A stretch of DNA of 64,000 bases from Candidatus Multivoradales bacterium. GTDB taxonomy: Bacteria > Acidobacteriota > Thermoanaerobaculia > Multivoradales > JAHEKO01. Location: the NCBI GenBank assembly GCA_965223155.1, contig CBDCVR010000013.1:864001-928000 (forward strand), read 5' to 3'. The translations under genes and the position numbers were made by a program. Below are positions 7,610-18,648 of the stretch, one piece after another (the first letter of the stretch is position 1; the number at the start of each line of letters is the position of its first letter). The notes below the pieces were generated by a model. The model saw nothing but the letters and a program-made list of their open reading frames with translations. It was not told the DNA's origin and did not search any database.

Positions 7610-8074
7610 TCAGGAACCGGCCTCGTCGAACCGCTTGACGAACGGCCGAAGGCCCGCGGGCTCGAAGCCGAGGGCATCGAAGAATTGAGCGATGCCCGTC
7701 ATCTCCTCATCGACCAGTGTACGCACGCTGGTGGCTCCCCGGCGCCGAAAGTGTTCGAGCATTGCCTCGGCCAATCGCCGGCCGACCGAGCGCCCGCGCG
7801 CCTCGGGGTCGACCCCGAGGACCTCGATCCAGCCGGTCGGCTCTTCCAGGCCGAACTCTCCGGACCGGACCTCGCCCATCATGAAGCCGATCACCCGGCC
7901 GTCGCTTTCGGCGACCACCGAGGCCTCCGGATCGCGCCGCATGTAGTAGCTCAGGCGACTCTCCCAGACCTCGGGCCGGTAGCCGCCGCCGATCTTCTCG
8001 TCCAGAGTTGTGATGTCCCCCAGATCCGTGTCCTCCACGGCCCGGACGCGTACGTCTTGAGAGGCTTCAGGCAT
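7610..8074 (-). CDS. GNAT family N-acetyltransferase
   Basis: LGVDPEARGRSVGRRL acetyl-CoA motif; FFDALGF. Confidence 0.88.
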   Translation of the reverse strand: MPEASQDVRVRAVEDTDLGDITTLDEKIGGGYRPEVWESRLSYYMRRDPEASVVAESDGRVIGFMMGEVRSGEFGLEEPTGWIEVLGVDPEARGRSVGRRLAEAMLEHFRRRGATSVRTLVDEEMTGIAQFFDALGFEPAGLRPFVKRFDEAGS

Positions 8075-8281
8075 TTCGATTGTCCCGGAAGACGACCGGA
8101 AGTAAGGACCGGCCGACGCCAAAATTCTATCGCCCGGCGCCCGCCCCGTAAACCGCCGCGCCGCGTCCCGGACCGATCCTGGATCGGCCCCACTCCGTCT
8201 CGACGGTCCCTAAGATCCGTGCGGCCAGCCGAACTCGGCAAGGCTCAGAAGTTGGCTAGAAAACCCGCTCGCGGCCGTCGT

Positions 8282-9345: not shown

Positions 9346-10053
9346 TCAGGCGACCCGATCGGCGCCGCGAACCGCAGCCGGCAACTCGGCGACGCGCTCG
9401 TAGTCGAAGACTTCGGCGAAACGATCCATCGCCGCCACGGCTACCGCCTTCAGGGCCGGAACCTCGCTCGGTCGCTCGTGTTCGATCGAGGTCATCACCA
9501 CCCCGGGGAGCCCGCAAGCCACGATACCTGCGAACAGGGACAGGTCGGTGGCAACGTTGAGGGCGAAACCATGAGTGGTGACCCAGCGGCTCAAATGGAC
9601 GCCGATCGACGCGATCTTGCGCTCCTCCACCCAGACCCCGATCTCGGCCTGCTCGCGACCCGGGGCCGCGGTGATGCCGAAGCCCTCGAGCACCCGCACA
9701 AGCACCTCCTGGAGGTCACGCACGTACCGACGCACGTCCTTCCTGTCTGGAGCCAGATTCAGAATCGGATACCCGACCAGCTGGCCCGGACCGTGGTACG
9801 TCACCTGCCCTCCCCGGTCAGTCGAGGCCAGATCGATGCCCTCTCCGGCCAGCATCTCCGGACTCAGCAACACGTCGCCCTCGCTCGCGGACCGGCCCAG
9901 CGTGTAGATGTGCGGATGCTCCAAGAGCAGCAGGTAGTCCGCGTCTCCGGCTCGCACATCCGCGCGTAGCCGTTCCTGCAGGGCGGTCGCCTGCCCGTAC
10001 TCGAGCCGGCCCAGATACCCGGCCCTCAGCGTCCTCTGTCGACGCGTCGTCAC
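9346..10053 (-). CDS. lipB: Lipoyl(octanoyl) transferase
   Basis: LEHPHIYTLG, DRGGQVTYHGPGQLVGYPI, KIASIG, HGFALN, IVACG. Confidence 0.96.
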   Translation of the reverse strand: MTTRRQRTLRAGYLGRLEYGQATALQERLRADVRAGDADYLLLLEHPHIYTLGRSASEGDVLLSPEMLAGEGIDLASTDRGGQVTYHGPGQLVGYPILNLAPDRKDVRRYVRDLQEVLVRVLEGFGITAAPGREQAEIGVWVEERKIASIGVHLSRWVTTHGFALNVATDLSLFAGIVACGLPGVVMTSIEHERPSEVPALKAVAVAAMDRFAEVFDYERVAELPAAVRGADRVA

Positions 10054-10189
10054 CCGCCCATTCTAGGCGTTTCGGAAAACCCGGCCGAGTTCCGTCAGAA
10101 AAACCGGGGGTCGCGGCAACCCAAGTACAAGAGGGCAACAAGAGCCGATCATGGGGACCGGTTTCGGAGTGCCCTCGGAGGGTTTCCGA

Positions 10190-10429
10190 ATGACCGCCAT
10201 CCGCAACAACCGTCGCCTTCTCGCCGCCCTGTGCCTGGTTCTCGCCAGCCTGGCCTTCGGCACCACGCCGGCAGCCGCCACCGAGACCCGCGTCCCGGCC
10301 GTCGAAGAACGCCTCCAGGAACGGATCTCCGACCTCGTCTTCCACGTTCAGGCGTTCCTCGCCGGCTGGCTCAACCAGTTCGAGAGCGCCCGCGAAGAAG
10401 AAGGGGCGAAGCTAGAAGACGGCAGCTAA
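10190..10429 (+). CDS. Small secreted peptide precursor (79 aa)
   Basis: GGAGG RBS; signal peptide MTAIRNNRRLLAALCLVLASLAFGTTPAAA; acidic tail EEEGAKLEDGS; hairpin follows the stop. Confidence 0.7.
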   Translation: MTAIRNNRRLLAALCLVLASLAFGTTPAAATETRVPAVEERLQERISDLVFHVQAFLAGWLNQFESAREEEGAKLEDGS

Positions 10430-10437
10430 TCCGTTCG

Positions 10438-10471
10438 GGAACGCCCGGTCTTCTCCGGAGCCGGGCGTTCC
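10438..10471 (+). terminator. GC-rich hairpin after the peptide gene
   Basis: GGAACGCCCGG...CCGGGCGTTCC perfect 11-bp inverted repeat; no U-tract. Confidence 0.55.
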
Positions 10472-10518
10472 TGGACAGCCAGACGGGCGGGTGGTAGCTT
10501 GTTGCGACGGAAAGTCAA

Positions 10519-11049
10519 ATGGCTGTGTCCAACGAGTACCGACGCACGGATGTCGATGACATCGTCGGGCTGTTCCGCTCTAGGTCAAGACGGCTGTTGG
10601 TTCGCTTCCGGATTCCCGTTGAGGACGCCGAGGATTTGGTTCAGGATTCACTCGTTCTCTTCCTGCGAAGGCAGCCGGACACGAAGAACGAAGTCGCTTG
10701 GCTCGAAGCAGCCCTTCGATATCGGTGCCTGACCTATTGGAGGGAGCGCCGAAGGCAAACGTACCTTCAGGTGGACCAGTCGATTCTCGAATCCCTCTCG
10801 GAAAAAGATCCGCCGAAACAGGAGCATCGCGTTTTTCTTCACGAGCTGTCATCAATCGTCGACTCGTTGCCCAAGAAGTGTCGCGTTCTACTCAGGCTCA
10901 GATACAAGACCGACCTGAGGCCTGCCGAAATCGCAGACCGACTTGGCTACCGCCGGAGCGGGATCTACAAACTCATCGACCGATGCATTGGAGTCGTAAC
11001 CCGCAAGATCTTTTCCTCCGGATTAGCAAGGCCGAGACGCTATCAATGA
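10519..11049 (+). CDS. ECF-type sigma-70 factor
   Basis: Region 2 EDAEDLVQDSLV...AWL; region 4 LPKKCRVLLRLRY...AEIADRLGY. Confidence 0.88.
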   Translation: MAVSNEYRRTDVDDIVGLFRSRSRRLLVRFRIPVEDAEDLVQDSLVLFLRRQPDTKNEVAWLEAALRYRCLTYWRERRRQTYLQVDQSILESLSEKDPPKQEHRVFLHELSSIVDSLPKKCRVLLRLRYKTDLRPAEIADRLGYRRSGIYKLIDRCIGVVTRKIFSSGLARPRRYQ

Positions 11050-12401
11050 ACCACTTCTCGGCCGAGCAACTTCAGCGATTCTCAGCAGGCAAGCTACCTC
11101 GGAAAGAGCGGGTGATGGTCGCTAGGCACTTGGTGAGTCGCTGTCCCAAGTGCATGCAGATCGCCGATGTCCACTGGAAGAACAGCTTCGCTGGGACCTC
11201 TTCGTCAACTTCTACTGAGGACGACTACTCCGAAGCCTTCGAACGAGGGATCGAAAAGGGATACAGCACTTGGACCCTACTCGGACGCGAACGGAGAGGG
11301 GTCGATGCCCTGTTGCAAGAGCTTCTTGAGCTCCCAGCGAGCCGACAACAGCTCGTCACTGCAAACAGCCCCAGATACTGGAACGCCACGCTCTGCCGGG
11401 AGTTGCTGGAAGAAGCAACCACAGCAGGTGGCTCGGACACCTCACATGCCGTTCATCTCACGCGGTGCGCGATCCAAATCAGCCAGAAGCTTGAGGAAAG
11501 CAAGTACGGCAAGGCTCTGGTCTCAGACCTGCAGGGGCGAGCCTGGACAACGCTCGGATCGATCCTGAGGCTAGCGTCCGACTACGATGGAGCAGAAGAA
11601 GCCTTGACAAAGGCTGCCTACTTCCTCCACACGGGAAGTGGTGATGAGCTAGAAGCCGCCCATCTACTTGCGGTGCAAGCCAGTCTTCTTGTCGCTCGGA
11701 GAAACTTCGATCAGGCATTGCGGATTCACAAGAAGCTGGACAGGGTTTATCGACGCCGCGGCGACAGGCACATGGTCGGCAGAGTTTTCTTGAAGAAGGC
11801 GTGGGTCTTCGCGAAGATGCATGATTCGACGAGGGAGATTGAAGCTCTAAGACAGGCTCGAACTCATCTCGATCCGGCCCAAGACCCGAGGCGTTGGGCC
11901 ATTGCTCAACATCATCTACTTGCGGTATTTGTCGACCAAGGTGAGCTTGAAAAGGCGCAGTCGATGGTCCTAGGTGTCCGCGAAGCGCACTTGGCGCTAG
12001 GGGACGCTCTGGCTCTCATTCGCCTCGAGTGGCTCGAAGCTCGAATCGCCTACAAGAAAGGCGACCTGGCCGAGGCCACGGCCAAGCTCAAGAGCGTTCG
12101 CGACCAGTTCGTTGAGCGGGAGATTGGGATCGACGTCGCGCTGTCGTCCCTGGAGCTGGCCGAGATGCACGCCTCGCAGGGCGAGGTCGAGGCGGCCAAG
12201 GCCCTGCTCGCCGAAGCCATCCCGATTCTCAAGGCCCTCCGGGTAGGCCCCGACACAGTCGCGGCGATGGCCTTCCTCGGCGAGCTGGTCGCTCGCGAGA
12301 CGGTGGAACGCGAGATCTTTCGCCGCGCCGTTGCCTTCGTGCGCAAGGCCCAGAACGATCCCCAGGTGCGCTTCGAGCCCGCCGAGCTGCTAGGCGACTA
12401 G
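11046..12401 (+). CDS. Zinc-finger (HxxxxCxxC) anti-sigma-like domain fused to TPR-like helical repeats
   Basis: ATGA overlap with the sigma stop; MNHFSAEQL...RHLVSRCPKC; helical repeats GRAWTTLGSILRLASDYDGAEEAL; no TM segment evident. Confidence 0.75.
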   Translation: MNHFSAEQLQRFSAGKLPRKERVMVARHLVSRCPKCMQIADVHWKNSFAGTSSSTSTEDDYSEAFERGIEKGYSTWTLLGRERRGVDALLQELLELPASRQQLVTANSPRYWNATLCRELLEEATTAGGSDTSHAVHLTRCAIQISQKLEESKYGKALVSDLQGRAWTTLGSILRLASDYDGAEEALTKAAYFLHTGSGDELEAAHLLAVQASLLVARRNFDQALRIHKKLDRVYRRRGDRHMVGRVFLKKAWVFAKMHDSTREIEALRQARTHLDPAQDPRRWAIAQHHLLAVFVDQGELEKAQSMVLGVREAHLALGDALALIRLEWLEARIAYKKGDLAEATAKLKSVRDQFVEREIGIDVALSSLELAEMHASQGEVEAAKALLAEAIPILKALRVGPDTVAAMAFLGELVARETVEREIFRRAVAFVRKAQNDPQVRFEPAELLGD

Positions 12402-12449: not shown

Positions 12450-13889
12450 CTAGAGGAAGGGATCCAACTCGCCCCAGGTTTCCTCGGCCAGGGTGCGCTT
12501 GACATCGTTCATGAAGTGGTCGGCGTCGGCCCCGTCCACCAGCCGGTGGTCGTAGGTGATCGCGAAGTACGACATATGCTTGATGGCGATGATGTCGTTG
12601 CCTTCGCGGTCCATATCCACGACTGGACGCTTCTCGATCGCGCCCAGGCCCAGGATCGCCACCTGCGGTTGATTGATGATGGGGGTGCCGAAGAGCGAGC
12701 CGAAGACCCCCGGATTGGTCACGGTGAAGGTCCCGCCTTGCACCTCGTGCGGCTGGAGCTTCTTTGCGCGAGCGCGCTCCGCCAGGTCATTGGCGGTCTT
12801 GGCCAGCCCGACCAGATTGAGCTGGTCGGCGTTCCGGATCACCGGCACGATGAGTCCCCAGTCCAGAGCCACCGCCATGCCGACGTTGATGTCTTTCTTG
12901 AACACGATGTTGGTGCCGTCGACCGAGGCGTTGAGCTTAGGGTGCGCCTTGAGCGCGCTTGCCACGGCCCGGAAGATGAACGGCATGTACGTCAGCTTGG
13001 TGCCGTGGGCGGCCTGGAAGCCGCCTTTAGCGCGGTTCCGGATGCGGGCCACGCGGGCCATATCGATATGGAAGACCGTGGTGACGTGGGCGGAGGTAGC
13101 CTTCGAATAGGTCATGTGCGCCGAGGTGATCTGGCGGATCTTCGACATCGGAACGATCTCGACGCTATCGCCCTCCGAGTACGGCGCCACCGAAAAATCG
13201 CCGGCGTCTCGACGCATCGGAGTCACGACCTGCGCCTGGACCGCGCCCGACGGCGCCGGCGTCGGAACCTCCGAAGCCGCCGCGGCCGCTGGCTCGGCTG
13301 GCTCGGCAGGGGCGGCGTCCGCGCCACCTCCGGCGAGAAAGGCCTCCAGGTCCCGCTTGGTTACCCGGCCGTGGATCCCAGTCCCTGAGACCTGCGAGAG
13401 ATCGACCCCGGCCTCCTTCGCCATCTTGCGCACCACCGGGCTCGAGAACTTGCGGACCCGCTCGGTATCCGGGTCGTCGGCACCGGAGCCATCCGAGAGG
13501 TCTGAAGAATCTGGGTCATCGGAGCCAGCGGAGCCAGCAGAGTCATCGGAGCCAGCGTCCGAGGTCGGAGCTTTCGCGGCGGCCTTCTCCGCCGGCTCGC
13601 TGCCGGCGGCAGCAGGCTCGGCCTCGGCTGGAGCCTCCCGAGGCTGGTCTCCGGGCTCGCCCAGGATCGCCACGATCTCGTTGATGGCAACCGTCGCGCC
13701 CTCCTCGAACTTGACCTCCAGCAAGACGCCGTCGGCCGGGCTCGGGATCTCGGCATCGACCTTGTCGGTCGAGATCTCGAAGAGCGGCTGATCGCGCTCG
13801 ACGCTGTCTCCGACCTTTGCGAGCCAGCGGGTGATAGTACCCTCGGCGATCGACTCGCCCATCTGCGGCATGATGACTTCGGTTGTCAT
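12450..13889 (-). CDS. sucB: 2-oxoacid dehydrogenase E2 (dihydrolipoamide acyltransferase, SucB-like)
   Basis: Lipoyl domain EISTDKVDAEIPSP, E3-binding SPVVRKMA...GTGIHGRVTKRD, catalytic YDHRLVDG. Confidence 0.88.
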   Translation of the reverse strand: MTTEVIMPQMGESIAEGTITRWLAKVGDSVERDQPLFEISTDKVDAEIPSPADGVLLEVKFEEGATVAINEIVAILGEPGDQPREAPAEAEPAAAGSEPAEKAAAKAPTSDAGSDDSAGSAGSDDPDSSDLSDGSGADDPDTERVRKFSSPVVRKMAKEAGVDLSQVSGTGIHGRVTKRDLEAFLAGGGADAAPAEPAEPAAAAASEVPTPAPSGAVQAQVVTPMRRDAGDFSVAPYSEGDSVEIVPMSKIRQITSAHMTYSKATSAHVTTVFHIDMARVARIRNRAKGGFQAAHGTKLTYMPFIFRAVASALKAHPKLNASVDGTNIVFKKDINVGMAVALDWGLIVPVIRNADQLNLVGLAKTANDLAERARAKKLQPHEVQGGTFTVTNPGVFGSLFGTPIINQPQVAILGLGAIEKRPVVDMDREGNDIIAIKHMSYFAITYDHRLVDGADADHFMNDVKRTLAEETWGELDPFL

Positions 13890-18174: not shown

Positions 18175-18648
18175 CTACCCGTCCCGGCCGCCGCTGCCCC
18201 CGTCCGGATCGGTAGGCTCCTTCTCCGGAGGATCCGCACCGGCGGTGGTGCAAGGGCCACAGGACTCCTTATAGTTCGTATAGGTGTCGCGACCGTCACC
18301 ACCCGCGCAGTCCCGCTTCTTGTACGTACACACCTCGAGTCCCTGCCCCCCTTCCGGGAGCGAGCAAGGACGGGTGAACGTACCCTCCTCGAAGCCGGTC
18401 TGCCAATCCCCGGGATTGCAGTCTTCCGGCTCCGGAGCTTCCAAAGCTCCCTCGTCTCCGGCGCCTTCGACTTCGGCCGTGGGTCCGGAGTCCCCGGCCA
18501 ACTCGCCCGCGGGAGCGGTGCCTCCGGCCGGAGTCTCGGCCCCGACCTCGAGAGAGACTTCGCCGGCGGACTGGGTGTCGTCACAGGCGGCGAGGCCGAA
18601 CAGCAGTAGGAGCGATCCGCAAATTCGTAAGATTCTTTGTTGTTTCAT
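18175..18648 (-). CDS. Hypothetical Cys-rich lipoprotein
   Basis: LAAC lipobox, acidic linker, C-terminal domain with six Cys. Confidence 0.6.
   Translation of the reverse strand: MKQQRILRICGSLLLLFGLAACDDTQSAGEVSLEVGAETPAGGTAPAGELAGDSGPTAEVEGAGDEGALEAPEPEDCNPGDWQTGFEEGTFTRPCSLPEGGQGLEVCTYKKRDCAGGDGRDTYTNYKESCGPCTTAGADPPEKEPTDPDGGSGGRDG

Follow-up and report, generated by a model that had tools for sequence, protein, structure and literature searches.

A small secreted protein, an ECF sigma factor and a zinc-finger/TPR protein form a conserved cassette in Acidobacteriota: a possible peptide-gated anti-sigma switch

How might a small secreted protein be connected with an extracytoplasmic function (ECF) sigma factor that is encoded together with a soluble zinc-finger protein containing tetratricopeptide repeats (TPRs)? 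This question is raised by three consecutive genes in a 64,000-nucleotide stretch of DNA (hereafter called the window) from Candidatus Multivoradales bacterium, a member of the Acidobacteriota (GenBank assembly GCA_965223155.1, contig CBDCVR010000013.1, positions 864,001 to 928,000). In our numbering the window is G000:C13:864001-928000, in which G000 is the source genome (4.0 Mb). The original prediction was that the TPR region senses a peptide processed from the small protein and thereby releases or activates the sigma factor, which would give a quorum-sensing-like ECF switch. We observed the genes, their domains and the fold, and a conserved, specific and repeated association of the genes. 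We take the three genes together as a single signalling cassette, belonging to a large family without a name that occurs in one class of Acidobacteriota. As to how the cassette works, we propose tentatively, at somewhat less than an even chance, a peptide-gated anti-sigma switch in which the small protein is the ligand of the TPR domain.

All three genes are on the forward strand. The listing of open reading frames (ORFs) and the translations place a small secreted-protein ORF of 79 aa at 10190-10429, the gene for an ECF-type sigma factor of 176 aa at 10519-11049 and the gene for a zinc-finger/TPR protein of 451 aa at 11046-12401. The stop codon of the sigma gene and the start codon of the zinc-finger/TPR gene overlap as ATGA (11046-11049). 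Thus, the signal-peptide ORF and the translational coupling of the two larger genes are both present as predicted.

The 451-aa protein had been predicted to be soluble, with an HxxxxCxxC finger and TPR-like repeats, and these features were borne out. It has no hydrophobic segment and matches TPR_12 (E = 2.5e-9). A structure model with a predicted local distance difference test (pLDDT) value of 93.1 contains helices at residues 6-13, 19-30 and 34-49, a disordered linker at residues 51-56, a long helix and about eight TPR hairpins. The first three helices make up an N-terminal zinc-finger domain (residues 1-50; 11046..11195, forward strand) with the ligands H3, H28, C33 and C36, each of which is kept in at least 90% of the 42 sequences in the family alignment (A1). 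The finger, H28-x4-C33-x2-C36, is one residue longer than the canonical ZAS finger, H-x3-C-x2-C, and so departs from the canonical spacing. A finger of the form H-x3-5-C-x2-C is present in 40 of the 50 full-length family genes, and both x3 and x4 occur. Matches to known anti-sigma domains were weak: TIGR02451 (ChrR anti-sigma) aligned with residues 3-41 at 20.4 bits (cut-off 124.5; E = 3.6e-4), and the alignment with the solved anti-sigma DdvA (E = 0.22) needed a gap of one residue at the finger. Pfam zf-HC2 did not match the 451-aa protein, and matched 2 of 21 paralogues weakly (21.9 and 16.8 bits; cut-off 22.2). Judged from sequence and model together, residues 1-50 appear to be a ZAS-like anti-sigma domain. 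The long helix and the TPR hairpins (residues 58-451; 11217..12401, forward strand) form a superhelix in the model, which we propose to be the sensor domain. No membrane segment was found in any aligned member of the TPR family.

The fold was compared with solved structures by VIA-align. The highest Z values for the 451-aa model were obtained with LGN (24.8) and Pins (24.1), followed by RapI (21.8), NprR-NprX (20.2), RapH-Spo0F (19.6), pLS20 Rap (19.2), the designed CTPR, a generic TPR protein (18.9), phi105 Rap with peptide (18.7) and PlcR-PapR (16.5). In a Foldseek search, RapJ with its peptide was at rank 4, and the TPRs of kinesin light chain with tryptophan-acidic cargo peptides were also among the fold matches. 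The best bacterial matches are Rap and NprR. LGN and Pins share with the model a superhelix of eight repeats over about 300 aligned residues (root-mean-square deviation 3.9-5.0), and they hold an extended peptide in the inner groove. However, they are eukaryotic polarity proteins with 16-17% identity, and the fold alone is in common. Thus, as modelled, the 451-aa protein belongs to the fold class of peptide-in-groove TPR superhelices. Rap proteins are built of an N-terminal three-helix bundle, a flexible linker and TPRs; the three-helix domain, linker and TPRs of the 451-aa model follow the same order. When TPR residues 58-451 and residues 31-79 of the small protein, its mature part, were co-folded, both with alignments, the result (score 0.05, mark 0.32) counted for neither side.

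Ten paralogues without a finger were scanned, and in six of them, all from genome G040, the finger is replaced by an XRE-type helix-turn-helix (HTH) domain (HTH_3 or HTH_31 above the Pfam cut-off). A model of one HTH paralogue (pLDDT 89.5) matched RapI (19.7), NprR (18.6), PlcR across both its HTH and its TPRs (16.2), and AimR (15.5), amid generic TPR proteins. Because either a finger or an HTH domain is carried on the same TPR module, the family seems to have one sensor module and two alternative output modules.

The 176-aa protein matches TIGR02937 at residues 29-159 with 52.7 bits (cut-off 42.9), and falls just under the Pfam cut-offs for Sigma70_r2 (23.2 bits; cut-off 24) and r4_2 (18.4 bits; cut-off 25.7). 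A profile of 19 family sigmas matches the solved ECF sigmas CnrH, SigL, SigE and RpoE with E values of about 1e-5 to 1e-7. By these sequence comparisons, the protein is assigned as an ECF (group 4) sigma-70 factor with a sigma-2/sigma-4 build. All NCBIfam subfamily and equivalog models scored far below their cut-offs on it; the best was TIGR02989 (60.1 versus 124.55). In the family, a sigma gene lies immediately 5' of 15 of the 50 TPR genes, and the other 35 do not have one. The ATGA coupling, this adjacency and the near-invariant zinc ligands point to a link of the 451-aa protein with the sigma factor. The sigma profile (A3) found eight matches in G040 (six at E < 1e-50), eight in G030, eight in G038, four in G026 and two in G000. 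Sigma genes are thus far fewer than TPR genes per genome (8 versus 39 in G040). Many Rap proteins likewise converge on few targets. The second family sigma of the source genome (G000:C15:31563-32114, forward strand; E = 4.8e-69) matches the profile slightly better than the sigma in the window. It has neither a zinc-finger/TPR gene nor a small ORF alongside, and the divergent gene upstream of it encodes a 729-aa signal-peptide protein.

The 79-aa protein consists of a signal peptide (residues 1-30), an amphipathic helix and a C-terminal E-E-G-A-K-L-E-D-G-S. The n-region contains R/N/R/R; a hydrophobic core comes next, and near residue 30 there is a cleavage-type site, A-A-A. A GGAGGG sequence lies 7-12 nt 5' of the ATG. 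An alternative in-frame ATG at 10151 would give 92 aa; the orthologues begin instead at the position equivalent to 10190. The GC contents of the three codon positions (0.71/0.46/0.82) are like those of the neighbouring real genes, and the ORF is annotated as a gene in public annotations.

In the family, the small proteins have a common build: a Sec signal peptide with a small-x-small site, a conserved W/F/L-rich helix, and one to six units of the motif G-x-x-phi-D-P-[ND]-G. Several of them terminate exactly at a unit. The tail EEEGAKLEDGS was described in the original prediction as a short polar tail. The sequence was given correctly; the description was not upheld, in that the tail E-E-G-A-K-L-E-D-G-S aligns with the family unit after the conserved helix and, by this alignment, is a degenerate copy of G-x-x-phi-D-P-N-G. 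It is similar to the end of the G006 protein. A conserved C-terminal motif had also been expected; it is present, is often repeated and varies between paralogues. Across 11 multi-copy precursors with 34 units, identity at the six variable positions was 73% when units of one precursor were compared and 28% when units of different precursors were, and none of 5000 label shuffles reached the observed value. Tandem duplication alone would also give such a pattern. The labile D-P and N-G bonds of the unit might conceivably serve maturation. In some paralogues (L049, L042, L037, P0024, L044 and the G002 orthologue) there are Cys residues on either side of the unit, a hint that the protein folds outside the cytoplasm.

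When 26 of the small proteins were scanned, all stayed below every Pfam and NCBIfam cut-off, and the 13 profile matches in public collections are all unnamed or "hypothetical". On sequence grounds, the small proteins are thus taken as an unnamed family of secreted small proteins. Two other assignments were rejected. The signal peptides have no lipobox before a Cys, as a lipoprotein would, and the units are not contiguous nonamers as in RTX-like calcium repeats. One small protein, P0017 (locus L015), carries the NCBI label "Deltaproteobacteria bacterium" (a metagenome-assembled genome), and the genome is placed in the order of G000. This is a labelling conflict and no evidence for another phylum.

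The distribution of the family was examined with the 451-aa protein as query against 41 related genomes, G000 included, with at most the best 41 candidates scored per genome. Matches were found in 32 of the 41 genomes. Within the order of G000 the matches numbered at least 41 in G030, 39 in G040 and 27 in G026. A search for paralogous sigma/zinc-finger-TPR pairs had been proposed as a check of the prediction; paralogous TPR genes were found, very many per genome in some members of this order, and the source genome itself encodes the TPR protein and the small protein once each. When a profile of the 42 TPR-family sequences (A1) was run on a phylum sample of 151 genomes (E <= 1e-30, best 11 candidates per genome scored), nine genomes matched, all in the class of G000; one of the nine, G063, is flagged as unpublished. 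In the protein Atlas, there are many clusters of 50-190 members, unnamed or named "TPR", in which Acidobacteriota is the commonest phylum. A public relative with 40% identity is labelled "hypothetical protein [Acidobacteria bacterium]".

To what extent is the small gene associated with the TPR genes? We collected 37 non-redundant loci, of which G040 supplied 18, G038 supplied 2 and 17 other genomes the remainder; the family TPR and sigma genes in them were marked by profiles. The small proteins were aligned to give a further profile (A2). A full-length A2 match lies less than 700 bp from 26 of the 42 family gene clusters, and six more matches lie directly 5' of aligned TPR starts, which brings the number to 32 of 42. 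No full-length A2 match was found elsewhere in the 37 loci. Variant small ORFs were seen by eye at three further clusters (L010, L017 and L048). Thus, the prediction that a small secreted ORF neighbours homologous sigma/zinc-finger-TPR or zinc-finger-TPR genes holds for these clusters and fails at the remaining seven. In G006, a copy of the small gene 5' of the TPR gene was seen by the locus search only and not by the A2 genome search.

A cruder count took signal-peptide-like ORFs of 50-160 aa and asked which of them have [ILMVFWTA]-D-P-x-G beyond the cleavage site. Near the family genes, 19 of 34 signal-peptide-like ORFs had the motif (55.4 kb); farther off in the same loci, 0 of 48 had it (179.8 kb); and in the source genome as a whole, 6 of 812 (4.0 Mb). 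The association of the small protein with the zinc-finger/TPR protein is as firm as comparative genomics allows, and far beyond chance. One of the six background matches, which are due to chance, lies in the window itself, at 18175-18648 on the reverse strand (G000:C13:882175-882648). It is a lipoprotein-like ORF of 157 aa, whose signal peptide ends L-A-A-C and whose C-terminal half is Cys-rich and acidic, and it is outside the cassette family.

The three-gene set is antisense to both of its flanks, lipB (9346-10053, reverse strand) and E2 (12450-13889, reverse strand); the ORF coordinates agree with the predicted position. The sigma-TPR pair lies between lipB and E2 in the four other genomes of the genus and in G022 from the sister genus. 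In all five genus genomes an ORF of 76-88 aa stands 5' of the sigma gene, with the end type G-x-x-[ILV]-[ED]-[DP]; the orthologues have the same signal-peptide pattern and a helix-forming middle. The small ORF is thus conserved throughout the genus, which bears on the suggestion that it might prove not to be. Identities between G000 and the rest of the genus are 38-40% for the TPR protein, 47-50% for the sigma and 27-34% for the small protein, as compared with 56-61% for lipB and 76-78% for E2. By these identities, the genes of the cassette have changed in step with one another, and far more quickly than the genes on either side. In G000, the sigma and TPR genes have a GC content at third codon positions (GC3) of 0.66-0.69, as against 0.82 for the small ORF and 0.81-0.84 for the adjoining genes; elsewhere in the genus, GC3 is similar across all three cassette genes (0.71-0.83). 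Given the drop in GC3 and the outlier identity of the cassette, the sigma-TPR part of G000 may have undergone allelic replacement.

Several other loci deserve mention. In G040, the paralogue closest to the 451-aa protein (L030; G040:C3:387500-395500) is near lipoyl synthase and near a GNAT gene resembling the window ORF 7610-8122 (L022 translation, by eye), and has a small ORF and no sigma. Because of the lipoyl synthase neighbour, the lipA/lipB-side location seems old within the order. Also in G040, cassettes in L042 (7927-9501) and L040 (6317-7360 and 7751-8878) join zinc-finger-TPR, HTH-TPR and small ORF, and adjoin genes for a MobA/VirD2 relaxase, an Mrr-type endonuclease and an AbiEii-like protein. 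These neighbours suggest that some members of the TPR family ride on mobile elements; Rap-Phr pairs are also carried on mobile elements. Just 5' of two cassettes, L010:82-834 and L022:120-689 look by eye like the C-terminal part of sigma-54 activator ATPases; L010:96-956, which overlaps the former, has no Pfam match at E <= 1e-8.

How is the cassette transcribed? Upstream of the small ORF there is an element of three blocks (10094..10135, forward strand): GTCAG at 10094-10098, GGCAAC at 10115-10120 and AAGAGGG at 10129-10135. All three blocks are kept in the five genus genomes. A TGTC[ACT][CG] block occurs 85-100 nt (in one case, 119 nt) 5' of the ATG in four genus orthologues and nine distant cassettes, and it is common to cassettes with and without sigma. 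We infer from this conservation that the three-block element is a candidate dedicated promoter of the small gene. It contains no GG-N10-GC by eye, and a sigma-54 promoter was rejected. The full pattern has one further site in the 4.0-Mb genome, on the other strand and within a gene; this was taken as chance, and a regulon defined by the pattern in the source genome was rejected.

A hairpin after the small ORF was also predicted, and it was found at 10438..10471 (forward strand), with perfect arms of 11 bp (10438-10448 and 10461-10471). Folding of the 76-nt stretch gave -45.1 kcal/mol (z = -4.6), and none of 200 shuffled sequences was as stable. It was absent from the list of the terminator scan because it has no T-run. 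In the other four genus genomes, a GC-rich inverted repeat of different sequence is seen by eye at the equivalent place. The hairpin is likely a transcript end or an attenuator between two transcription units. Immediately after it is a putative sigma-70-like promoter of the sigma/TPR operon (10472..10500, forward strand; TGGACA-17 nt-TAGCTT), with a TG just 5' of the second hexamer. The pattern TnGACA-N17/18-TAnCnT with the upstream TG precedes the sigma gene in all five genus genomes, and the assignment is made from this conservation; the consensus scan missed it because the second hexamer has only three of six matches. Taken together, the cassette probably comprises two transcription units, of which the small gene would be under a dedicated, family-wide element.

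The cassette resembles known systems in part. As in the RRNPP systems (Rap-Phr, NprR-NprX, PlcR-PapR and AimR-AimP), a cytoplasmic TPR-superhelix protein is encoded beside a small Sec-type pro-peptide gene, the conserved part of the small protein is C-terminal, and many diverging paralogous pairs exist per genome. Some paralogues here are XRE HTH plus TPR, like PlcR, NprR and AimR, and G040, with its many TPR proteins and few sigmas, resembles the case of Rap. In contrast to RRNPP, no membership was found at the sequence level, the host belongs to the Acidobacteriota and is presumably diderm, as judged from its phylum, and the output is a predicted zinc-finger anti-sigma domain acting on an ECF sigma. 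Moreover, the small gene is upstream rather than downstream, and its precursor combines a conserved helix with repeats of a D-P-N-G unit, which is sometimes flanked by Cys. The ZAS/ECF pairs, such as ChrR-SigE, RsrA-SigR and DdvA-DdvS, have in common with the cassette an anti-sigma-like gene directly 3' of, and translationally coupled to, the ECF sigma gene. The N-terminal helical domain has His/His/Cys/Cys at a spacing like that of the zinc ligands of ChrR. Unlike these pairs, the finger is H-x4-C-x2-C (x3 and x4 in the family), there is no membrane span, cupin or periplasmic domain but a cytoplasmic TPR sensor of about 390 residues, 35 of the 50 family members lack a sigma directly upstream, and there is a conserved secreted small-protein partner.

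A described combination of an ECF sigma and a cytoplasmic TPR domain is ECF42. In the portions of the two sources covered, ECF42 is regulated via a cytoplasmic TPR extension thought to bind another molecule (PMC8999054, PMC7826278). There, however, the TPR is fused to the sigma without an anti-sigma, whereas here it is on a separate zinc-finger protein; and those portions describe no secreted-peptide gene (PMC8999054, PMC7826278). In the covered part of their paper, Casas-Pastor et al. mention TPRs for the ECF42 extensions and for the FecR-like protein of ECF267 only, and state that unrecognised soluble anti-sigmas probably exist (PMC7826278). Among the papers listed by a literature search on ECF sigma, anti-sigma and TPR in Acidobacteria, the passages name ECF42 and ECF267 only; the supplementary group tables of PMC7826278 could list this context. 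According to the part of the RRNPP_detector paper covered, RRNPP systems belong to Firmicutes and their mobile elements (PMC10075063). The part of PMC12700828 covered has no mention of gram-negative, sigma or Acidobacteria. Our search for RRNPP in Acidobacteria found no literature, and that for RRNPP with an anti-sigma found none on such a system, as judged by title and abstract.

On the basis of these likenesses, the proposed switch would work as follows. The 451-aa protein would be a cytoplasmic anti-sigma, whose zinc-finger domain holds the co-translated ECF sigma and whose TPR superhelix is the sensor. The small gene would give a Sec-exported pro-protein, of which the C-terminal part (the W/L-rich helix and the unit, here E-G-A-K-L-E-D-G-S) would be the signal. 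The exported protein, probably processed, would build up outside the cell; the C-terminal signal would then re-enter and occupy the TPR groove. Uptake is possible because the genome has Opp-type binding proteins, encoded by two SBP_bac_5 genes. A Rap-like rearrangement would change the hold of the zinc finger on the sigma, so that binding of the peptide alters the presentation of the finger and frees the sigma, capture being the less likely outcome. If the family sigma reads the element 5' of the small gene, the circuit would be autoinducing. In this scheme we infer that the finger binds the sigma, that the small protein is exported, processed and taken up, that the peptide binds the TPR domain, and which way the switch works. 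The precursor-like build of the small proteins (signal peptide, helix and one to six repeated units) was counted in favour of the peptide, as was the rapid joint divergence of all three genes. Thus, the predicted quorum-sensing-like switch is partly supported, by the adjacency, the motif, the HTH paralogues and the Rap/NprR fold, and is partly weakened by the seven clusters that lack the small ORF.

These clusters belong to a group of observations that weigh against the peptide-gated switch. The seven of 42 clusters without a detectable small ORF include the syntenic sigma-TPR pair of G022, in which the intergenic region of 241 bp contains no small ORF, and an A2 search across G022, G010 and G019 gave nothing convincing. 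The locus sample is biased and its members are related (18 of 37 loci are from G040), so that the association counts are not independent trials. Among 83 heterogeneous neighbouring ORFs scanned, there was no conserved third partner such as a peptidase, exporter, importer or kinase. The peptide would have to cross an outer membrane in both directions, since the host is presumably diderm. The Cys pairs that flank the motif suggest a disulfide-closed loop outside the cytoplasm, and the conserved helix may mean that the functional unit is 30-50 aa and not a short peptide. The upstream element is found also in cassettes without sigma, and hence gives no one-to-one link between peptide and sigma. 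As for the fold, the RRNPP receptors are not clearly separated from generic TPRs (CTPR at 18.9, and LGN at 24.8 versus RapI at 21.8), and the 18 Pfam matches of the 451-aa protein at E up to 1 include no RRNPP-specific family.

What else could the small protein be? The main rival explanation, which we consider unlikely but deserving of serious attention, is that it is the output of the system and not the input, i.e. a controlled product such as a secreted effector with bacteriocin-like or surface-active properties. The zinc-finger/TPR protein would then sense another cue, such as a partner protein lying in the groove or a redox or metal signal acting on the Zn-Cys site. Some zinc anti-sigmas with H/H/C/C ligands sense redox, and the ligands of the 451-aa protein resemble theirs. 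An output would agree with the transcription units, since the small gene, with a family-wide upstream element and a hairpin of its own, is probably transcribed separately, and the putative promoter of the sigma operon is of the housekeeping type; the Cys-flanked motifs and the amphipathic W-rich helix would also fit a folded, possibly membrane-active product outside the cytoplasm, and some sigma-TPR pairs lack the small ORF. However, a large conserved TPR sensor would be left without a ligand. It would also be unexplained why the small gene stays with zinc-finger-TPR genes that have no sigma (15 of 50 with sigma, as against 32 of 42 clusters with the small ORF) and why HTH-TPR paralogues occur in the same cassettes, and identical units in several copies are seen more typically in peptide precursors than in folded effectors. 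The two roles are moreover compatible, because an autoinducing signal is both.

The small protein could also be read from outside. It would act in the periplasm or at the surface, and a membrane protein encoded elsewhere would relay the signal to the TPR protein and free the sigma. The oxidising compartment implied by the Cys-flanked loops, the absence of any importer linked to the cassettes, and the frequent binding of other proteins' tails by TPR superhelices, as in the top matches LGN and Pins, are all consistent with such a relay. Nevertheless, the 83 neighbouring ORFs include no conserved membrane partner, and if the 16-41 TPR paralogues of a genome, each with its own small protein, shared one relay, specificity would be lost; we judge the relay to be quite improbable. 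A secretion-coupled switch would need no re-import, because both partners are made in the cytoplasm: the TPR protein would bind the unexported precursor, and anti-sigma activity would report export. TPR chaperones of secretion systems bind their substrates before export, and the conserved W/L helix could bind a TPR, as kinesin light chain with its tryptophan-acidic peptides among the fold matches illustrates. Classic Sec signal peptides with A-x-A sites, however, predict fast export, this switch leaves the repeated C-terminal units and the paralogue-specific variation unexplained, and we know of no precedent for a TPR protein that monitors Sec substrates; it is accordingly rated as very improbable. 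That the small ORF is unrelated or non-coding, and that the remaining genes are an ordinary ECF sigma/anti-sigma pair, is hardly credible. The ORF has no database family and sits in the GC-rich part while the GC3 of the sigma and TPR genes is lower in G000, but it is conserved in all five genus genomes with signal-peptide features and a coding GC pattern, its family is found beside TPR-family genes only, and it is publicly annotated as a gene.

The cassette combines known kinds of regulation, ECF/ZAS control and an RRNPP-like logic, in a form that is undescribed in the literature searched. Taken further, it would be the first peptide-pheromone system with a TPR receptor outside Firmicutes and the first with an anti-sigma receptor. 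Precursors of one to six units would each be paired with their own zinc-finger-TPR or HTH-TPR protein, and dozens of receptors would converge on few ECF sigmas, forming a combinatorial network for cell-cell communication or kin recognition in Acidobacteria; this extended picture is speculative, and we hold it to be rather doubtful. ECF sigmas are a main signalling device of bacteria, and sensing by soluble anti-sigmas is largely open. Here, a three-part cassette is expanded up to about 40-fold per genome in a phylum that is poorly studied and environmentally abundant. If the peptide is the output instead, the small proteins are still an undescribed family of secreted proteins under dedicated control. 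If the peptide is the ligand, ECF sigmas would be controlled here in a new way, cell-cell communication in Acidobacteria would have a first point of entry, and the cassettes would make up a large natural library of orthogonal peptide, receptor and sigma parts.

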